The translations under genes were made by a program, and so were the position numbers. From a virus (lineage: Duplodnaviria; Heunggongvirae; Uroviricota; Caudoviricetes), in IMG/VR virus record IMGVR_UViG_3300014515_000023: 9,984 nt of DNA, one strand, 5' to 3'. Position 1 is the stretch's first letter; each line of letters begins with the position of its first letter. Below the pieces are notes generated by a model. That model did no database searches. It was not told the origin of the DNA and saw only the letters and a list, made by a program, of their open reading frames with translations. Positions 1-6,386 of this stretch are shown here, piece after piece.

Positions 1-83
1 AACCTGAGGAGTAAGAGACCTGGCGGGGGAGAAATCCCTCGCCACCTCTGATGAGTCAGGCATCCTCAATGCACCCGCGCTTA

Positions 84-103
84 ACCCGCTTCGGCGGGTT
101 TTT
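84..103 (+). terminator. Rho-independent terminator hairpin upstream of the cassette
   Basis: Stem CCCGC (85-89), loop TTCG, stem GCGGG (94-98), followed by T5 (99-103). It is a near-identical direct copy of the hairpin at 1949-1968. Confidence 0.6.
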
Positions 104-118
104 CTAGCATCTATCTGG

Positions 119-147
119 TTGACAAAGTCTATGTTAAATGGAAATAT
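119..147 (+). promoter_or_regulatory. Putative sigma70 promoter for the two-gene cassette
   Basis: Perfect -35 TTGACA at 119-124, 17-nt spacer, weak -10-like AAATAT at 142-147. A second GGTTGACA lies at 148-155. RBS AAGGA at 166-170 sits about 10 nt before the ATG at 181. The -10 is weak, so this is tentative. Confidence 0.3.
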
Positions 148-180
148 GGTTGACACCAAAACAACAAGGATATTACGGTC

Positions 181-795
181 ATGCAGAATTTATCTCAACA
201 GTTGTTAGAAGCATATGACAAGGAGTGCCGCAAAGAGCTTTCGATCGCGTTAGCACAGGCTTATCTTCATTCGCATATGAAGGCAAAAGAGTTTGGTTCT
301 TTTTGGGCTCAAGCACAGTCATATTTGCGCTGGTTTTATGCCGATGCATTGCTTGAGAATGCGGCTAAGCGTGTGGGGCTGGATTTTGAAGTCGGTAGCA
401 ATGCTGCTAAAAATTGTAAACACATTGCGATTCACTCGAACAACTGGAAAATGACGGCACATCATTTATCGGGTAATGCGCCACTTCCTAAGCAGGCATT
501 GTATAGAGCTGTTTACGCTAATCAAAATTATGAATTGAATTTTGGGGATGAAAATGCCGACTCCCTGGATGGGAGAGCGTCTGGTGGACATGTTTATATG
601 TTACATGATGGCAGTAATCAGCACTTGTCCAAACTGAATTTAACTGTTCCTTCTTCGGATAATTACGGGATTCTTTATACTGAGTCTTTACCAATTATGA
701 CGATGGTAGAAGTTGAAGCAGAAAATGTGGATTCTGAGATTGAAGATAAAATCAAGATTCTTACCGAACAAATAATTAAATCACAGCAATCATGA
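181..795 (+). CDS. Hypothetical protein, 204 aa, first gene of the cassette; no domain recognised
   Basis: Clean ORF with an RBS and an upstream promoter-like site. Its stop TGA (793-795) overlaps the ATG (792-794) of the next gene, which suggests translational coupling. AT-richer than the flanking phage genes by eye. Acidic C-terminal tail. I recognise no catalytic motif. Confidence 0.75.
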   Translation: MQNLSQQLLEAYDKECRKELSIALAQAYLHSHMKAKEFGSFWAQAQSYLRWFYADALLENAAKRVGLDFEVGSNAAKNCKHIAIHSNNWKMTAHHLSGNAPLPKQALYRAVYANQNYELNFGDENADSLDGRASGGHVYMLHDGSNQHLSKLNLTVPSSDNYGILYTESLPIMTMVEVEAENVDSEIEDKIKILTEQIIKSQQS

Positions 796-1937
796 GCATG
801 AATATCGCACAAACACCATTTACTGATAAATCGTTTAATCCTCGTCGCCTTGAGGAGGCAAGAGAGGCAAAAGGGTTGACGATGGCTGAACTTGCCAGAG
901 TGCTCAATATTTCAAGACAAGCTATTTCGTCATTTGAGAAGGGGTTGAAGTCTCCCTCTGCTGATACACTTTCTGCAATAGCCAAGGTGTTAGGATTTCC
1001 AGAACGATTTTTCTTAGCCTCCAGTGCTTCTCCATCTCTGGAGGGGGCGATTCATTTTAGAAGTCGTTCAACTGCGACCAAAAAGGCTCGAGTTACAGGG
1101 AAAACACGTGGGCGTTGGGCGGCATTAATATTGGATGAATGTCTAAAATATGCTCAATTACCAGATGTGGTTCTGCCTGAATTCGATATTATTGATTTTG
1201 AGGTTCTGTCTCTATCTGATATTGAGGATATGTCCACCCAATTAAGGCGTTTTTGGGGGTTAGGTGATGGTCCAATACTCAATTTAACTAGACTTGTTGA
1301 AAATAAAGGAATCGTGGTTTCTCATTTACCTTCTGGTGAGAAAGTTGATGCCTTTTCGTTCTGGCATAATGGGCGGCCTTTAATTATGTTAGATAGCTCG
1401 AAGACGGCTGTTCGCATGCGATTTAGTCTTGCTCATGAACTTGGCCATTTAATTATGCATAGGGCAGTGGAGGATGACTACCTGAATGATAAAGAATTAT
1501 TCGACCTAGTGGAGTTGCAGGCCGATTATTTTGCCTCCAGCTTTTTAATGCCAGCCACGACTTTCGGGCGTGAATTTTATAGTCCAAATTTATCAGCGTT
1601 AGAACGATTAAAACTACGTTGGATTACATCTATCGGTAGTATTGCCATGAGGAGTCATAGCCTTAAGTTAATTAGCGATAATCAGAAAAGCTATATATTT
1701 AAGCAATTAGCGCCATTCCATCGTAGGGAGCCGTTAGATGATGCAATCCCAAAAGAAGAGCCTGAGTTACTTAATAAGTTACTTTTACTTCTTGATAAGC
1801 ATTCAATCATAAAGGTAACTGAGTTAACTGATATCTTTGCTCTTCCTTTAAATGAGTTATCTGCAATTACACGATTTAAAGAATCAGATATGATTCATTC
1901 TGACAATGTTATTTCATTTACCATAAAACAAAAATAA
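792..1937 (+). CDS. Fused XRE-family HTH and ImmA/IrrE-type (COG2856, peptidase M78-like) zinc metallopeptidase, 381 aa
   Basis: N-terminal segment (residues about 20-75, GLTMAELARVLNISRQAISSFEKG) matches the XRE/Cro-C1 helix-turn-helix pattern. HEXXH zinc motif HELGH at residues 215-219 (nt 1434-1448) sits in the context SLAHELGHLIMH typical of ImmA/IrrE peptidases. A C-terminal extension of about 150 aa has unknown function. Followed by a terminator. Confidence 0.85.
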   Translation: MSMNIAQTPFTDKSFNPRRLEEAREAKGLTMAELARVLNISRQAISSFEKGLKSPSADTLSAIAKVLGFPERFFLASSASPSLEGAIHFRSRSTATKKARVTGKTRGRWAALILDECLKYAQLPDVVLPEFDIIDFEVLSLSDIEDMSTQLRRFWGLGDGPILNLTRLVENKGIVVSHLPSGEKVDAFSFWHNGRPLIMLDSSKTAVRMRFSLAHELGHLIMHRAVEDDYLNDKELFDLVELQADYFASSFLMPATTFGREFYSPNLSALERLKLRWITSIGSIAMRSHSLKLISDNQKSYIFKQLAPFHRREPLDDAIPKEEPELLNKLLLLLDKHSIIKVTELTDIFALPLNELSAITRFKESDMIHSDNVISFTIKQK

Positions 1938-1948
1938 TTCTCATTCAT

Positions 1949-1968
1949 ACCCGCCTCGGCGGGTTTTT
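1949..1968 (+). terminator. Rho-independent terminator downstream of the cassette
   Basis: ACCCGCCTCGGCGGG followed by T5 then GTTTT. Differs by one nucleotide from the hairpin at 84-103. Confidence 0.6.
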
Positions 1969-2043
1969 GTTTTACGTATTCTGGTTTACAATCCACAGGC
2001 CAGCCTGAACAACTGGCACCTGCTGCGCCAGCAGAGACAACCG

Positions 2044-2322
2044 ATGGCGCACGATACCAAATTATACAATTCTGATGATTCTGCCGTCTTTGCCAGCAGG
2101 CGCGGACGGTGTTTTCACGCATTCAAATCTGACTGGTACCAGCATCCCCCATGCACTGAAGAACAGGCCGAATGGCTCATTCAGTGTTACCGCAGGCGCG
2201 GATGCGAGGTTAAAAAAGCCCTTAGCCTCGACTACCGTCACTGGATAATCTCCGTCAGGCTCCCTTACTCCGAACGGCCAGCGCGTCCGTCCCGCACATT
2301 CCAGCAACGGATCTGGAGGTAA
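2044..2322 (+). CDS. Hypothetical phage protein, 92 aa
   Basis: ORF in the same orientation as the operon. Its stop TAA (2320-2322) lies immediately before the GTG start (2324) of the next gene and overlaps that gene's GGAGG RBS. No strong RBS of its own; the reading frame stays open upstream through the terminator, so the true start is uncertain. Confidence 0.4.
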   Translation: MAHDTKLYNSDDSAVFASRRGRCFHAFKSDWYQHPPCTEEQAEWLIQCYRRRGCEVKKALSLDYRHWIISVRLPYSERPARPSRTFQQRIWR

Positions 2323-2323
2323 T

Positions 2324-3379
2324 GTGCGGGTATTACTTCGACCTGTTCTGGTACCGGAACTCGGTCTGGTTATCGTTAAGCCAGGCCGTGAATCAATGTC
2401 AGCATTCCATAACGGCAGAATACTGGTGGAGCCGGAACCAAAAAGCATGCGTAATCTGCCGTCCGGGGTCGTTCCTGCCGCTCGCCAGCCGCTGGTGGAA
2501 GACAAAACATTGCTGCCGTTTTTCAGTAACGCACGGGGGATTCGTGCTGCTGGTGGTGCTGGTGCATTGTCTGACTGGCTGTTGCGCCATATTAAATCCT
2601 GCCAGTGGCCACACGGCGATTATCATCACAGCGAAACCGTCATTCACCGTTATGGTACCGGCGCAATGGTGTTGTGCTGGCACTGCGACAACCAGCTGCG
2701 TGACCAGACATCCGAATCACTCGAGCAACTTGCTCATCAAAACCTGTCAGCATGGATGATTGACGTCATCGGTCACGCAATAAGCGGTACGCAGGAGCGT
2801 GAATTATCTCTGGCTGAATTATCCTGGTGGGCGGTCCGCAATCAGGTGGCGGACGCGCTACCGGAAGCGGTATTACGTCGTTCGCTGGGGTTGCGTGCGG
2901 AAAAAATCCGCTCAATGTACCGTGAAAGCGACATCGTACCGGGAGAGCAGACCGCCACCAGCATACTGAAGCAGCGCACAAAAAATCTTGCGCCGCTGCC
3001 TCACGCCCACCAGCAAAACCCGCCACAGGAAAAGACGGTGGTCAGCATTGCTGTTGATCCGGAGTCACCGGCTCAGTATCTCCAGCGCCAGAAACCACAA
3101 CGGGAAGAGATGCCTGTATACACGCGCTGGGTAAAAACGCAGAAATGCATGACGTGCGGTAATCAGGCAGATGATCCGCATCACATCATTGGTCATGGAC
3201 TGGGAGGGATGGGAACAAAGGCTGATGATTTGTTTGTTATTCCGCTGTGCCGTAAATGTCATAACGAACTGCACGCCGGGGTAAAAGATTTTGAAGAAAA
3301 ACACGGCAGCCAGCTGTTGTTGCTGATTCGTTTTTTAATGCACGCGAGAAATTCGGGTGTCCTGAAGTGGAAAGCATGA
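2324..3379 (+). CDS. DUF968-like (YdfU-like) prophage protein with two Cys/His-rich clusters, 351 aa
   Basis: GTG start preceded by GGAGG (2310-2314). C-terminal cluster C275-x2-C278, H286-H287, H291, C309-x2-C312-H313, H317 (nt about 3146-3274). N-terminal cluster C93, H97, HH101-102, C118-WH-C121. Sits immediately upstream of rusA. The family call is from memory of Qin-prophage YdfU. Confidence 0.65.
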   Translation: MRVLLRPVLVPELGLVIVKPGRESMSAFHNGRILVEPEPKSMRNLPSGVVPAARQPLVEDKTLLPFFSNARGIRAAGGAGALSDWLLRHIKSCQWPHGDYHHSETVIHRYGTGAMVLCWHCDNQLRDQTSESLEQLAHQNLSAWMIDVIGHAISGTQERELSLAELSWWAVRNQVADALPEAVLRRSLGLRAEKIRSMYRESDIVPGEQTATSILKQRTKNLAPLPHAHQQNPPQEKTVVSIAVDPESPAQYLQRQKPQREEMPVYTRWVKTQKCMTCGNQADDPHHIIGHGLGGMGTKADDLFVIPLCRKCHNELHAGVKDFEEKHGSQLLLLIRFLMHARNSGVLKWKA

Positions 3380-3745
3380 ATGACTGAACGCATAGAATTT
3401 GTTTTGCCTTACCCGCCAACGGTGAACACTTACTGGCGACGTCGTGGCAGCACATATTTTGTATCAAAAGTCGGTGAGCGTTATCGCCGTGATGTGGCGC
3501 TTATTGTTCGCCAGCAGCAACTGAAATTAAACCTGTCCGGAAGGCCGGCAATAGAAATTATTGCAGAGCCACCGGATAAGCGCCGTCGTGACCTGGACAA
3601 TATCCTGAAGGCACCACTGGATGTACTGACGCATGCGGGGCTGCTCATAGACGACGAGCAGTTTGATGAAATTAATATTGTGCGCGGTCAGCTTGTTCCT
3701 GGTGGGCGGTTGGGGATAAAAATCACAGAACTGGAGTACGCATGA
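3380..3745 (+). CDS. rusA: RusA-family Holliday junction resolvase, 121 aa
   Basis: Size and motifs match E. coli RusA as recalled: LPYPPTVNTYWRRRG near the N-terminus, the catalytic-region RRRDLDNILKAPLDVL, and GGRLGIKITE near the C-terminus. Stop overlaps the next gene's start (ATGA at 3742-3745). Confidence 0.9.
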   Translation: MTERIEFVLPYPPTVNTYWRRRGSTYFVSKVGERYRRDVALIVRQQQLKLNLSGRPAIEIIAEPPDKRRRDLDNILKAPLDVLTHAGLLIDDEQFDEINIVRGQLVPGGRLGIKITELEYA

Positions 3746-4431
3746 ATAACCAGTATTTACAGTTTGTTCGTGAGCAACTCATGATTGCCACCGCCGATTT
3801 GAGTGGATCAACAAAAGGGCAGCTTGAGGCCTGGCAGGAGAATGCCATGTTTGATACAGGGCGTTACAGGCGTAAAAAAATCCGGTACCGCGATGAAGTG
3901 ACTGGAAAAATGATAACGCGGGATAATCCACCAATCCCGGGAAAGCAATCGCTGGCGAAGGGGGTGTCAATTCCTCTCGTCAGTCCGGTTGAGTTTTCGA
4001 CATCATCGTGGCGGCGGGCTGTTCTGTCTCTTGAAGAACATCATAAAGCCTGGTTGTTGTGGTGTTACAGCGGGAGTATTTGTTGGGAATATCAGATCGC
4101 GATAACGCAGTGGGTGTGGAATGAATTTAAAACCCGGTACGGCACCAGAAAAATTGCAGGGAAAACGCAGGAGCGCGTGAAGAAGTTGATCTGGCTGGCG
4201 GCACAGGATGTCAGAGGATGGATTACCGGGTGTGAGGTCTACCAGAGACAGGAGCTTGCCAGACTGTGTGGAGTTAAGCCTGATAACTGGAGCCATAATT
4301 ATGCGAACTACTGGCGTGAGATGTGCGATATTTTTAAGAGTCTCGATAGAGAATCTGTGATTTGCACCGTGAAAATAAGAGCGCAACAAAAAGCGACTTT
4401 TTCACGACGAGATATTGCAAAAGTCAATTAA
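3742..4431 (+). CDS. Putative late-gene antiterminator Q (phage 82/Qin quuQ-like class), 229 aa
   Basis: Position is canonical: immediately after rusA and immediately before a promoter-like region plus a short-transcript terminator. Translationally coupled to rusA. The family assignment is by synteny and recollection, not by a motif I can verify. Confidence 0.55.
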   Translation: MNNQYLQFVREQLMIATADLSGSTKGQLEAWQENAMFDTGRYRRKKIRYRDEVTGKMITRDNPPIPGKQSLAKGVSIPLVSPVEFSTSSWRRAVLSLEEHHKAWLLWCYSGSICWEYQIAITQWVWNEFKTRYGTRKIAGKTQERVKKLIWLAAQDVRGWITGCEVYQRQELARLCGVKPDNWSHNYANYWREMCDIFKSLDRESVICTVKIRAQQKATFSRRDIAKVN

Positions 4432-4452
4432 ATAGCGTACGTTTCGTATAAA
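4415..4452 (+). promoter_or_regulatory. Candidate late promoter (PR'-like) / Q-utilisation region
   Basis: TTGCAA at 4415-4420 and -10-like TATAAA at 4447-4452 lie directly downstream of the Q stop and about 50-70 nt upstream of a strong terminator, analogous to lambda PR'-tR'. The spacing is non-ideal, so this is tentative. Confidence 0.3.
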
Positions 4453-4492
4453 TCTGATATTTTGCCGATTTTGTACGCGATGGCAAAGTAAG

Positions 4493-4523
4493 AAAAAAAA
4501 CTGCCGTCAGGCGGTTTTTTTTT
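4493..4523 (+). terminator. Intrinsic terminator (tR'-like), potentially bidirectional
   Basis: A8 (4493-4500), stem CTGCC (4501-4505), loop GTCA, stem GGCGG (4510-4514), T9 (4515-4523). Confidence 0.65.
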
Positions 4524-4645
4524 ATGCCCAAAATCGCGTCAGTACAGTAAACACGCTGGTGGTTGCGAATACGGGTCTTTCAGCTTGCTGGCTTTTTCGA
4601 CAAGAGTTATTGGTATGTCACGTTAACCGGAAAAAGGAAAAAGAC

Positions 4646-4843
4646 ATGCTAAAACAGCAGGATATGACAGAAACCGCCAGAGTGGTGTTTAATGAATTAA
4701 GCGTTACCGAACCGGCGACAGTCGGGGAGATAGCGCAGAATACTTACCTTTCACGCGAACGCTGCCAGTTAATACTGACCCAGCTGGTTATGGCGGGGGG
4801 GGCAGACTATCAGTTCGGTTGTTACAGACGCCTTCAGTCCTGA
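4646..4843 (+). CDS. Small hypothetical protein, about 65 aa, possible HTH/winged-helix DNA-binding protein
   Basis: ATG at 4646 preceded by AAGGAAAAAG RBS. This is the in-frame internal start of track ORF 4559..4843. The segment TVGEIAQNTYLSRERCQLILTQL resembles a helix-turn-helix. Sits between tR' and the methyltransferase. Confidence 0.45.
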   Translation: MLKQQDMTETARVVFNELSVTEPATVGEIAQNTYLSRERCQLILTQLVMAGGADYQFGCYRRLQS

Positions 4844-4993
4844 AGGCTTTTTTATTTGTGGTAAATGGGCGGCTGGTGGGTGTTAGGGGCACCCACCAGC
4901 CATCTGCTCATGCGTTGGGTTCACAAGCAAACCTCAGGCCCACTGCTTTGCGCAAAAGCAGAATGAGCCTATCAGAGACAGGCTTAATGATCC

Positions 4994-6043
4994 ATGCTTA
5001 ATACTGTAAAAATATCCAGTTGTGAGTTAATCAACGCCGACTGCCTGGAATTTATCCGGTCGTTACCCGAAAATTCTGTTGACCTGATAGTCACGGACCC
5101 GCCGTACTTTAAAGTGAAGCCTGAGGGCTGGGATAACCAGTGGAAGGGCGACGATGATTACCTGAAGTGGCTGGACCAGTGTCTGGCGCAGTTCTGGCGG
5201 GTGCTGAAACCTGTCGGAAGTCTTTACCTGTTCTGTGGTCATCGCCTGGCATCTGATATCGAAATCATGATGCGTGAACGCTTCAGTGTGCTGAACCATA
5301 TTATCTGGGCGAAGCCGTCCGGACGCTGGAACGGATGCAACAAGGAAAGCCTGCGGGCGTATTTCCCCGCCACAGAGCGCATTCTGTTCGCGGAACATTA
5401 TCAGGGGCCGTATCGTCCGAAAGATGCCGGGTATGCGGCGAAGGGCAGTGCACTGAAACAGCATGTGATGGCCCCGCTGATTTCTTACTTTCGTGATGCG
5501 CGCGCTGCCCTGGGGATAACGGCAAAACAGATTGCAGATGCCACAGGAAAGAAAAACATGGTGTCGCACTGGTTCAGTGCCAGTCAGTGGCAGCTACCGA
5601 ACGAAAGCGATTATCTGAAATTACAGTCGCTGTTTGCCCGGGTGGCAGAAGAGAAACATCAGCGCGGTGAACTGGAAAAGCCCCACCACCAGCTGGTGGA
5701 TACGTATACGTCACTGAACCGGCAGTATGTGGAGCTGCAGAGTGAATATAAGCATCTGCGGCGGTATTTTGGTGTGACGGCGCAGGTGCCGTACACGGAT
5801 GTGTGGACACATAAACCGGTGCAGTTCTATCCCGGGAAACATCCGTGCGAAAAACCGGCAGAAATGCTGCAGCAGATAATCAGCGCAAGCAGTCGTCCGG
5901 GTGACCTGGTTGCAGATTTTTTTATGGGCTCAGGTTCAACGGTAAAAGCGGCACTGGCGCTTGGGCGTCGTGCGATTGGCGTTGAACTGGAGACCGGACG
6001 TTTTGAGCAGACAGTCAGGGAAGTTCAGGATTTAATCGTTTGA
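4994..6043 (+). CDS. DNA N6-adenine or N4-cytosine methyltransferase, beta-class motif order, apparently orphan, 349 aa
   Basis: Motif IV DPPY at residues 35-38 (nt 5096-5107) in the context SVDLIVTDPPYF. SAM-binding motif I FxGxG (FFMGSGST) at residues 309-316 (nt 5918-5941). Motif IV before motif I is the beta-class order. No restriction-endonuclease-like ORF is adjacent. Confidence 0.9.
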   Translation: MLNTVKISSCELINADCLEFIRSLPENSVDLIVTDPPYFKVKPEGWDNQWKGDDDYLKWLDQCLAQFWRVLKPVGSLYLFCGHRLASDIEIMMRERFSVLNHIIWAKPSGRWNGCNKESLRAYFPATERILFAEHYQGPYRPKDAGYAAKGSALKQHVMAPLISYFRDARAALGITAKQIADATGKKNMVSHWFSASQWQLPNESDYLKLQSLFARVAEEKHQRGELEKPHHQLVDTYTSLNRQYVELQSEYKHLRRYFGVTAQVPYTDVWTHKPVQFYPGKHPCEKPAEMLQQIISASSRPGDLVADFFMGSGSTVKAALALGRRAIGVELETGRFEQTVREVQDLIV

Positions 6044-6092
6044 AACGGATGAGATTGCAGAATTAATTACGCACCATTATTATTCTGCTCCC

Positions 6093-6168
6093 GGCCCTTT
6101 AGCTCAGTGGTGAGAGCGAGCGACTCATAATCGCCAGGTCGCTGGTTCAAATCCAGCAAGGGCCACCA
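6093..6168 (+). tRNA. ileZ: tRNA-Ile2-like, anticodon CAU (lysidine type), 76 nt with encoded CCA
   Basis: Manual cloverleaf: acceptor GGCCCTT/AAGGGCC, D-arm GCTC-AGTGGTGA-GAGC, anticodon loop CTCATAA, T-loop TTCAAAT, then A-CCA. Closely resembles E. coli ileX as I recall it. A Met identity cannot be excluded from sequence alone. Confidence 0.85.
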
Positions 6169-6175
6169 TCACATA

Positions 6176-6252
6176 CCGCCATTAGCTCATCAGGAAAGAG
6201 CGCCAGCTTTCGAAGCTGGTTGCGCGGAGTTCGGGTCCCCGAAGGCGGTCCA
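6176..6252 (+). tRNA. tRNA-Arg, anticodon UCG, with non-canonical features
   Basis: Anticodon stem CCAGC/GCTGG is perfect with loop TTTCGAA (anticodon TCG). D-arm GCTC...GAGC. The acceptor stem has one A-A mismatch. The T stem has one A-C mismatch. The T-loop TTCGGGT has G at the usually invariant A58 position. Discriminator T, then CCA. Confidence 0.6.
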
Positions 6253-6265
6253 TTATCTGTATCCT

Positions 6266-6342
6266 GCGTTGTTAGCTCAGCCGGACAGAGCAATTGCCTT
6301 CTAAGCAATCGGTCACTGGTTCGAATCCAGTACAACGCGCCA
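6266..6342 (+). tRNA. tRNA-Arg, anticodon UCU, 77 nt with encoded CCA
   Basis: Perfect acceptor GCGTTGT/ACAACGC, anticodon loop CTTCTAA, T-loop TTCGAAT, discriminator G, CCA. Architecture is like E. coli argU. Confidence 0.85.
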
Positions 6343-6386
6343 CACTTATTTTCCCTGGCTCGCTTTTGCGGGCTTTTTTTAAATGT

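Follow-up and report, generated by a model that had tools for sequence, protein, structure and literature searches.

We analysed a 9,984-nt stretch of DNA (hereafter the window) from the Caudoviricetes virus record IMGVR_UViG_3300014515_000023 and conclude, with a probability of about 80%, that the two-gene cassette near its left end is a RosmerTA-type toxin-antitoxin/abortive-infection module that occupies, as a moron, the hokD-DUF968 slot of a lambdoid Escherichia coli prophage. The system type is a known one, and the locus is already recognised by standard defence-annotation models. The initial annotation, made from the letters alone, had described a peptidase protein with a helix-turn-helix (HTH) domain and a partner, and had mentioned the name Rosmer for one such system. 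The name was apt: open reading frame 2 (ORF2) matched the PADLOC RmrA model PDLC03947 (E = 5.5e-102, residues 11-380 on profile positions 7-381 of 383), and ORF1 matched the PADLOC RmrT models PDLC03933/34/37/40. The locus thus combines an HTH+M78 protein with an RmrA profile match, an intact HExxH motif, a toxin gene directly upstream on the same strand and an RmrT profile match; the toxin itself, when compared with the experimentally tested RmrT proteins OLC-716 RmrT and Vmi480, showed no homology to them. Because RmrT is an acknowledged set of unrelated toxins (Ernits 2023), this dissimilarity does not exclude membership in RosmerTA.

The cassette and flank features given below all lie on the plus strand. 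The first gene, rmrT (ORF1, 181-795), encodes a predicted toxin of 204 aa, soluble and acidic, of the PDLC03933-type RmrT family; the second, rmrA (ORF2, 792-1937), encodes a putative antitoxin/regulator of 381 aa in which an XRE HTH is fused to an M78 (ImmA/IrrE) zinc peptidase. The two co-oriented reading frames share an ATGA at 792-795, as the initial annotation had read them, and a Shine-Dalgarno-like AAGGA (166-170) lies 10 nt before the ORF1 start codon. The proposed AT-richness of the cassette also held, with a GC content of 39.9% for 104-1968 versus 51.5% for 1969-9984. Two hairpins, at 84-103 (dG -13.9 kcal/mol, z -3.1) and 1949-1968 (dG -12.1 kcal/mol), were identical at 19 of 20 positions (repeat family D4), and in both a GC stem closed by a 4-nt loop leads into a U-run; relative to shuffled sequences, z is about -3. 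A simple terminator scan called the right hairpin and missed the left one. By coordinate mapping onto locus L002, a further copy of the cassette, positions 1-14 are the 3' end of hokD, the type I toxin gene upstream of the slot: positions 3-14 read CCT GAG GAG TAA, the last hokD codons (...PEE*), and in L002 the hokD stop lies 46 nt before the start of the match. The left hairpin is therefore the hokD terminator and the left copy of the slot-bracketing repeat, and the right hairpin is the cassette terminator and the right copy. The terminator bracketing that had been proposed was thus correct as to the near-identical hairpins, but the left one is hokD's own terminator.

Two candidate starts were seen for rmrA, one at ATG 792, overlapping the stop of rmrT, and one at ATG 798, and public annotations contain both the 381-aa and the 379-aa form. 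The 379-aa variant in the cluster list was set aside, since in all likelihood it is this gene with its start placed at the second ATG (798); the longest contig listed for it belongs to a genome in which the cassette is present at 99.8% identity.

RmrA joins an XRE HTH and a CapP/IrrE-like zinc peptidase in one compact protein. Its HTH_3 domain (residues 20-73, 849-1010; Pfam, 2.4e-16) is followed by a Peptidase_M78 domain (residues 170-287, 1299-1652; Pfam, 9.7e-19) with an intact HExxH zinc motif, HELGH (residues 215-219, 1434-1448), of which H215, E216 and H219 were invariant across 48 homologues. The recognition helix, (V/I)SRQAIS.FEKG, is kept among the HTH partners of ORF1-type toxins, and the RmrA structure model (predicted local distance difference test, pLDDT, 89.6) had CapP and IrrE as its nearest folds. 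With 1,213 clusters at E <= 1e-10, the RmrA family is much larger than the ORF1 family, for which HMMER, run exhaustively against 1.84 billion cluster representatives, returned only 44 relatives at E <= 1e-3. A large antitoxin family beside few toxin relatives fits the published picture of one antitoxin chassis combined with many toxins (Ernits 2023).

The C-terminus of RmrA (1905-1934, NVISFTIKQK) ends in a V(I/V)xFxLK tail that is kept in the partners of ORF1-type toxins. OLC-716 RmrA ends in a similar tail, and the model gives the RmrA tail low confidence; it could be a toxin-binding or protease-recognition tail. A 393-aa protein in the Protein Data Bank (PDB), 9vzy_A, named 'HTH cro/C1-type domain-containing protein', was matched by the RmrA profile in its peptidase portion (E = 1.6e-11); it may represent the earliest solved structure for a fused HTH-M78 protein like RmrA.

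As a single sequence, ORF1 matched PDLC03933 weakly (E = 7.5e-10, residues 47-161). All 38 aligned relatives match the same model, with a best value of 5.9e-48, and the family member from a Bacillus subtilis prophage matches it over the full length (4.2e-75). This places ORF1 in the existing PADLOC family, and by these profile matches it is a divergent proteobacterial branch of it. ORF1 gave no Pfam, NCBIfam or PDB sequence match with either a single-sequence or a profile query, a Foldseek search of its model against the PDB returned nothing significant, and a peptide-pattern scan of representative genomes for the family gave no match. No relatives were found on plasmids, and among deposited phages only Tritos carries one.

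The closest comparisons come from characterised pairs. The experimentally verified RosmerTA system of E. coli OLC-716 (Millman 2022; sequence from Millman et al. Table S) likewise consists of two co-oriented genes, toxin first, with an HTH-M78 antitoxin of about 370-380 aa; its RmrA is 31% identical to ORF2 over the full length (4e-41), and PADLOC files it and the cassette alike as RmrT/RmrA. Its RmrT, in contrast, has 239 aa and matches PDLC03935/03932, whereas ORF1 matches the models named above, and the OLC-716 toxin type was rejected for ORF1 on the different models and the lack of similarity. The OLC-716 system defends against phage, and a delta-rmrA strain was unobtainable (Millman 2022). 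For Vmi480/Vmi470, from MGIVmi1 of Vibrio mimicus, toxin-antitoxin function is proven (Luo 2015), with a toxin of about 200 aa encoded upstream of an HTH zinc-peptidase antidote; we recovered its sequences from Vibrio thalassae through a published primer sequence. Vmi470 is 35% identical to ORF2 (4e-50). Unlike the cassette, this pair lies on a mobilisable genomic island and not in a prophage, and its toxin falls in another RmrT family, PDLC03929, for which reason the Vmi480/E101 toxin type was also rejected for ORF1. An E. coli E101 prophage pair related to Vmi480/470 makes clpP essential (Rousset 2021). ORF2 further scored 4.8e-55 against the spr1629-family model of NCBIfam, short of that model's curated cut-off; Spr1630/Spr1629 of Streptococcus pneumoniae, RipA/RipB, is a Rosmer-family toxin-antitoxin pair according to its authors, with an essential antitoxin, a dependence on ClpX and the DnaN sliding clamp as the target of RipA. 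The Gordonia phage Kita pair, RmrT(D5)/RmrA, is phage-borne like the cassette and has a demonstrated, narrow anti-phage activity (Ernits 2023). The Kita toxin is membrane-localised and depolarising, whereas ORF1 lacks any hydrophobic segment, its Kyte-Doolittle value peaking at 0.7 over 19 residues. In published work on relatives, the upstream gene is toxic, the HTH-peptidase neutralises it, also in trans, and cannot be deleted alone, and ClpX or ClpP is essential where a RosmerTA-type toxin is present.

Such behaviour also suits a pure addiction module, a type II-like toxin-antitoxin pair that would stabilise the prophage or the slot by post-segregational killing and have no anti-phage effect. 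Vmi480/470, RipAB and the essential rmrA of Pectobacteriaceae act as classical toxin-antitoxin pairs, the neighbouring hokD is another addiction-type toxin, and the evidence for defence comes from toxin families other than that of ORF1. On the other hand, two RosmerTA systems with other toxins protect against phages (Millman 2022; Ernits 2023), by analogy with which the cassette would be expected to do the same, and pairs of this kind sit in prophage moron slots (the nin region, between Q and the holin gene, the head region) that are typical for superinfection-defence cargo. The two roles are not mutually exclusive, and we consider addiction without any defence unlikely, though the most serious of the competing explanations.

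In other loci, the two genes proved to be inherited and exchanged as a unit between slots and hosts. In all eight other loci compared, an ORF1-type gene was followed by an HTH+M78 gene, with spacings from a 17-nt overlap to a 4-nt gap. Identity to the window's proteins ranged from 56% to 21% for the toxin and from 65% to 37% for the antitoxin, and the two identities co-varied across these loci (Spearman 0.96, p = 2e-4); the initial annotation had named the absence of such co-variation as a finding that would speak against it. The pair was found in the stx-type slot between tRNAs and the nanS esterase gene (E. coli 2013C-3181), in a tRNA-Gly island (E. coli C21-2) and in a similar island of Cronobacter, between Q and the holin gene in two different Yersinia enterocolitica prophages, between head protease and terminase genes in an uncultured phage, in Alcaligenes and a metagenomic contig, and in a B. 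subtilis prophage. A search of E. coli with the P0043 pair gave no match. The divergent E. coli 2013C-3181 pair (L007, 5931-7687; 56% and 65% identical) stands beside TerB-family and IraM genes, and the same prophage carries a PemK/MazF toxin gene after Q. The RefSeq start of its rmrA is 6626, with the frame open from an ATG at 6536 that would overlap the rmrT stop by 1 nt.

A second shared feature is found upstream of rmrT. Of the 13 RosmerTA loci for which upstream DNA was available, the window among them, 12 have two GGTTGAC boxes on either side of the -10 at a spacing of exactly 31 bp, also where the toxins are unrelated. Two perfect TTGACA hexamers stand upstream of rmrT in the cassette, at 119-124 and 150-155. 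The first is a -35 element contained in box 1, GGTTGACA (117-124), whose position relative to rmrT is shared by homologous loci; by our reading of the sequence it is followed, after a 17-nt spacer, by a weak -10-like hexamer, AAATAT (142-147), which matches the consensus at 3 of 6 positions and aligns beside TAAAAT or TAAATA of homologous loci. Box 2, again GGTTGACA (148-155), follows box 1 at a distance of 31 bp and covers the place where transcription is expected to start. When the regions upstream of rmrT were aligned from nine loci, with proteins down to 21% (toxin) and 37% (antitoxin) identity, two GGTTGAC-type boxes were seen exactly 31 bp apart, box 1 including the -35 and box 2 standing just 3' of a TAAAAT-like -10. 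The double-box pattern had one match in the window (117-154), versus 0.01 expected. Among 28 fetched loci, the strict pattern had one match in each of 12, namely two further copies of the window cassette (L001 and L002) and ten homologous pairs, and none elsewhere; four empty or other-cargo loci gave no match, and three more RosmerTA loci (L009, L020 and L027) have variant boxes that the strict pattern misses. The positive loci include Vmi480-type loci of Vibrio thalassae and Ningiella, with the same 31-bp spacing upstream of a toxin unrelated to ORF1, which indicates that the element travels with RmrA and not with the toxin. The simplest reading is that the two boxes are probably RmrA operators that give autorepression. 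In a limited literature search, we found no paper describing a GGTTGAC double box or RmrA autorepression.

Among 5,426 complete E. coli genomes, 41 carry the full cassette, in each case at >=99.7% identity, with the adherent-invasive E. coli (AIEC) LF82 and avian pathogenic E. coli (APEC) O2:K1 strains among the carriers; among deposited phages it was found in Tritos only, a prophage of LF82. The hokD/DUF968 flanks of the slot match in thousands of genomes. In O157:H7 E32511 the slot is empty, the hokD terminator being followed directly by the 92-aa ORF and DUF968, whereas one other strain has a split HTH + ImmA/IrrE pair in it and two others a 130-aa hypothetical protein. Comparison of homologous prophages, which the initial annotation had suggested, thus revealed a variable slot, in line with the proposed accessory cargo in the nin region. 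Of the alternative cargos, the split HTH/ImmA pair and the 130-aa gene of MINF_2E were aligned, and each ends in its own ACC(C/T)GCTTCGGCGGGTTTT hairpin copy; cargo is therefore exchanged between the duplicated terminators. The 92-aa ORF 3' of the slot (2044-2322) is a conserved phage gene (PHROG 1212, 4.4e-35) that always precedes the DUF968 gene. In LF82 RNA-seq data (PMC9928086), the Tritos copy is listed as morons; in lysogens, expression exceeds the prophage background 30-fold for the hypothetical protein and 14-fold for the ImmA/IrrE protein.

The duplication of the cassette ends reaches beyond the hairpins: TCTGGTTGACAA at 114-125 corresponds to TCTGGTTTACAA at 1980-1991 (repeat family D17), a resident flank sequence that is identical to the box 1 region at 11 of 12 positions and also occurs in empty-site prophages. 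By its sequence and place, it could provide homology for cargo exchange, be the -35 of the downstream 92-aa ORF, or be an extra RmrA site before DUF968-rusA-Q. The last option touches on the possibility that ORF2 is a prophage regulator, an ImmR/ImmA-like fused repressor/anti-repressor for induction or late genes with ORF1 as an accessory factor, acting perhaps on the GGTTTACA-like site (1982-1989) that precedes DUF968-rusA-Q. ImmR/ImmA, DdrO/IrrE and CapH/CapP indeed have the same HTH and M78 domains, and the box-like sequence stands just downstream of the cassette; the same box, however, is also present in empty-site prophages. Each of those known regulators consists of two separate proteins, whereas HTH and M78 are fused here, and they control an integrative conjugative element, a radiation regulon or the operon of a cyclic-oligonucleotide-based anti-phage signalling system (CBASS), whereas the gene controlled in the cassette is a toxin gene. 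We found no CBASS or conjugative-element genes near the cassette in the Tritos and APEC prophage contexts, and CapH/CapP, with its separate HTH and protease genes beside a CBASS operon, was rejected as an identity for the cassette. A core regulator is hard to reconcile with a cassette confined to the 41 genomes above and missing from thousands of flank matches and the examined empty-site prophages, with the presence of the same pair in non-phage islands and other slots, and with prophages that have their own CI and Cro elsewhere. In Tritos these lie ~5 kb upstream of the cassette, and the APEC prophage has an equivalent divergent regulator pair upstream, annotated as a hypothetical protein and a transcriptional regulator. 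We therefore regard a regulatory role of this kind as very improbable. The specific scenario that ORF2 is the immunity repressor of the prophage, given in the initial annotation as what would refute it, was ruled out by the separate CI/Cro and by the absence of the cassette from most flank-sharing prophages.

We also modelled the predicted toxin. The AlphaFold2 model of ORF1 (pLDDT 82.7; predicted template modelling score 0.77) begins with a long helix (14-64), continues with three strands (68-95), a second helix (107-116) and three further strands (136-169), and closes with a C-terminal helix; it bears a weak likeness to the restriction-endonuclease fold. The family-conserved residues are N74, A76, N78, H81, T92, H94, A106, R109, H142, G144, P157 and E181; a D...(D/E)xK motif, which together with an alpha-beta-beta-beta-alpha-beta core marks the PD-(D/E)xK nuclease superfamily, is absent among them. 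From the order of secondary structure elements, we infer that H81 and T92-x-H94 occupy strands two and three, at the places of the canonical residues. Nucleic acid is a plausible candidate target. A beta-clamp-binding motif in the N-terminal QQLLEAY, considered by analogy with RipA/DnaN, was rejected: the peptide is unlike QL[SD]LF or QLxLxL and lies in a predicted helix.

Within the RosmerTA interpretation, these observations suggest how the module might work. RmrT would be a soluble toxin on a restriction-endonuclease-like core, with conserved His, Asn and Thr in place of the usual acidic residues and lysine, and would probably act on nucleic acid or the replication machinery and not on the membrane. 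RmrA would neutralise it after translation and probably repress its own promoter through the two GGTTGAC boxes, which at a spacing of 31 bp (three helical turns) cover the -35 and the point where transcription starts. The peptidase would be switched by a cue derived from phage or damage, by analogy with ImmA/ImmR, IrrE/DdrO and CapP/CapH; repression would then be relieved and RmrT freed, so that the infected cell is stopped. Host ClpXP would probably help to restrain the toxin, as in other RosmerTA systems. The full combination, in which an ORF1-type RmrT re-uses a restriction-endonuclease fold with a His/Asn site and acts on DNA or the replisome while RmrA is a portable regulator-plus-neutraliser chassis with a conserved double-box operator, is put forward tentatively and is possible rather than probable.

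Several points weigh against the RosmerTA interpretation and its mechanism. ORF1 showed no similarity to the verified OLC-716 RmrT by BLASTP or hhalign, the ORF1 family matched Vmi480 with an hhalign probability of 0.08%, and no experiment on ORF1's toxin family was found in the searchable literature; for this cassette, binding of RmrA to the operators, toxicity of RmrT and its neutralisation, a trigger, and protection from phages all stand as inferences. The promoter that the initial annotation assigned to the cassette has its TTGACA -35, in two copies, but a consensus promoter scan of the window did not call it because the -10 is weak, AAATAT falling below the threshold. The LF82 signal of the cassette could partly be terminator read-through, since the adjacent upstream hokD is transcribed about 3,800-fold above background (PMC9928086). 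The roles of the two proteins could, by analogy, also be reversed, the ORF2 HTH-peptidase being the toxic effector and ORF1 its inhibitor or sensor: in PD-lambda-2 the HTH-peptidase PD-lambda-2B is toxic alone and rescued by the product of the upstream gene, PD-lambda-2A (Vassallo 2022), ORF2 has a weak PADLOC match to PD-Lambda-2_B (E = 0.002), and ORF1 is without recognisable catalytic residues. ORF2 nevertheless fits RmrA models ~100 orders of magnitude better than PD-Lambda-2_B, ORF1 is not HigB-like, and every studied RosmerTA pair consists of an upstream toxin and an HTH-peptidase that is its essential antidote, which makes the reversal improbable. PD-lambda-2 itself was rejected as an identity for the cassette: it has three genes, for a HigB-like toxin, an HTH-peptidase and a P4-antitoxin-like third component, whereas the cassette has two, with no HigB or other Pfam match for ORF1 and only the weak match for ORF2.

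A RosmerTA module in this position would give prophages of clinically relevant E. coli (AIEC LF82, APEC O2:K1 and other extraintestinal pathogenic strains) a defence or addiction function, and the hokD-DUF968 junction emerges as a cargo-exchange point bracketed by duplicated terminators. A toxin family without assigned activity now has a confident structural model. If true, the conserved double operator would put RmrA autoregulation at the centre of RosmerTA, and its retention across phyla and unrelated toxins would explain how new toxins are plugged in behind the same promoter. Neither the toxin family nor the double operator overturns the current understanding of RosmerTA.

Elsewhere in the window, three tRNA genes lie at 6093-6342, which ARAGORN reads as Met(CAT), Arg(TCG) and Arg(TCT); for the APEC prophage that matches, RefSeq has the first as tRNA-Ile, as would fit a CAT anticodon modified with lysidine. 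Between these genes and a nanS-type esterase gene are two copies of the STnc100 small RNA, at 6417-6607 and 6885-7094 (Rfam RF02076; 136 and 165 bits). The STnc100 site is the slot where Shiga toxin phages carry stxAB, and here it holds no long ORF.

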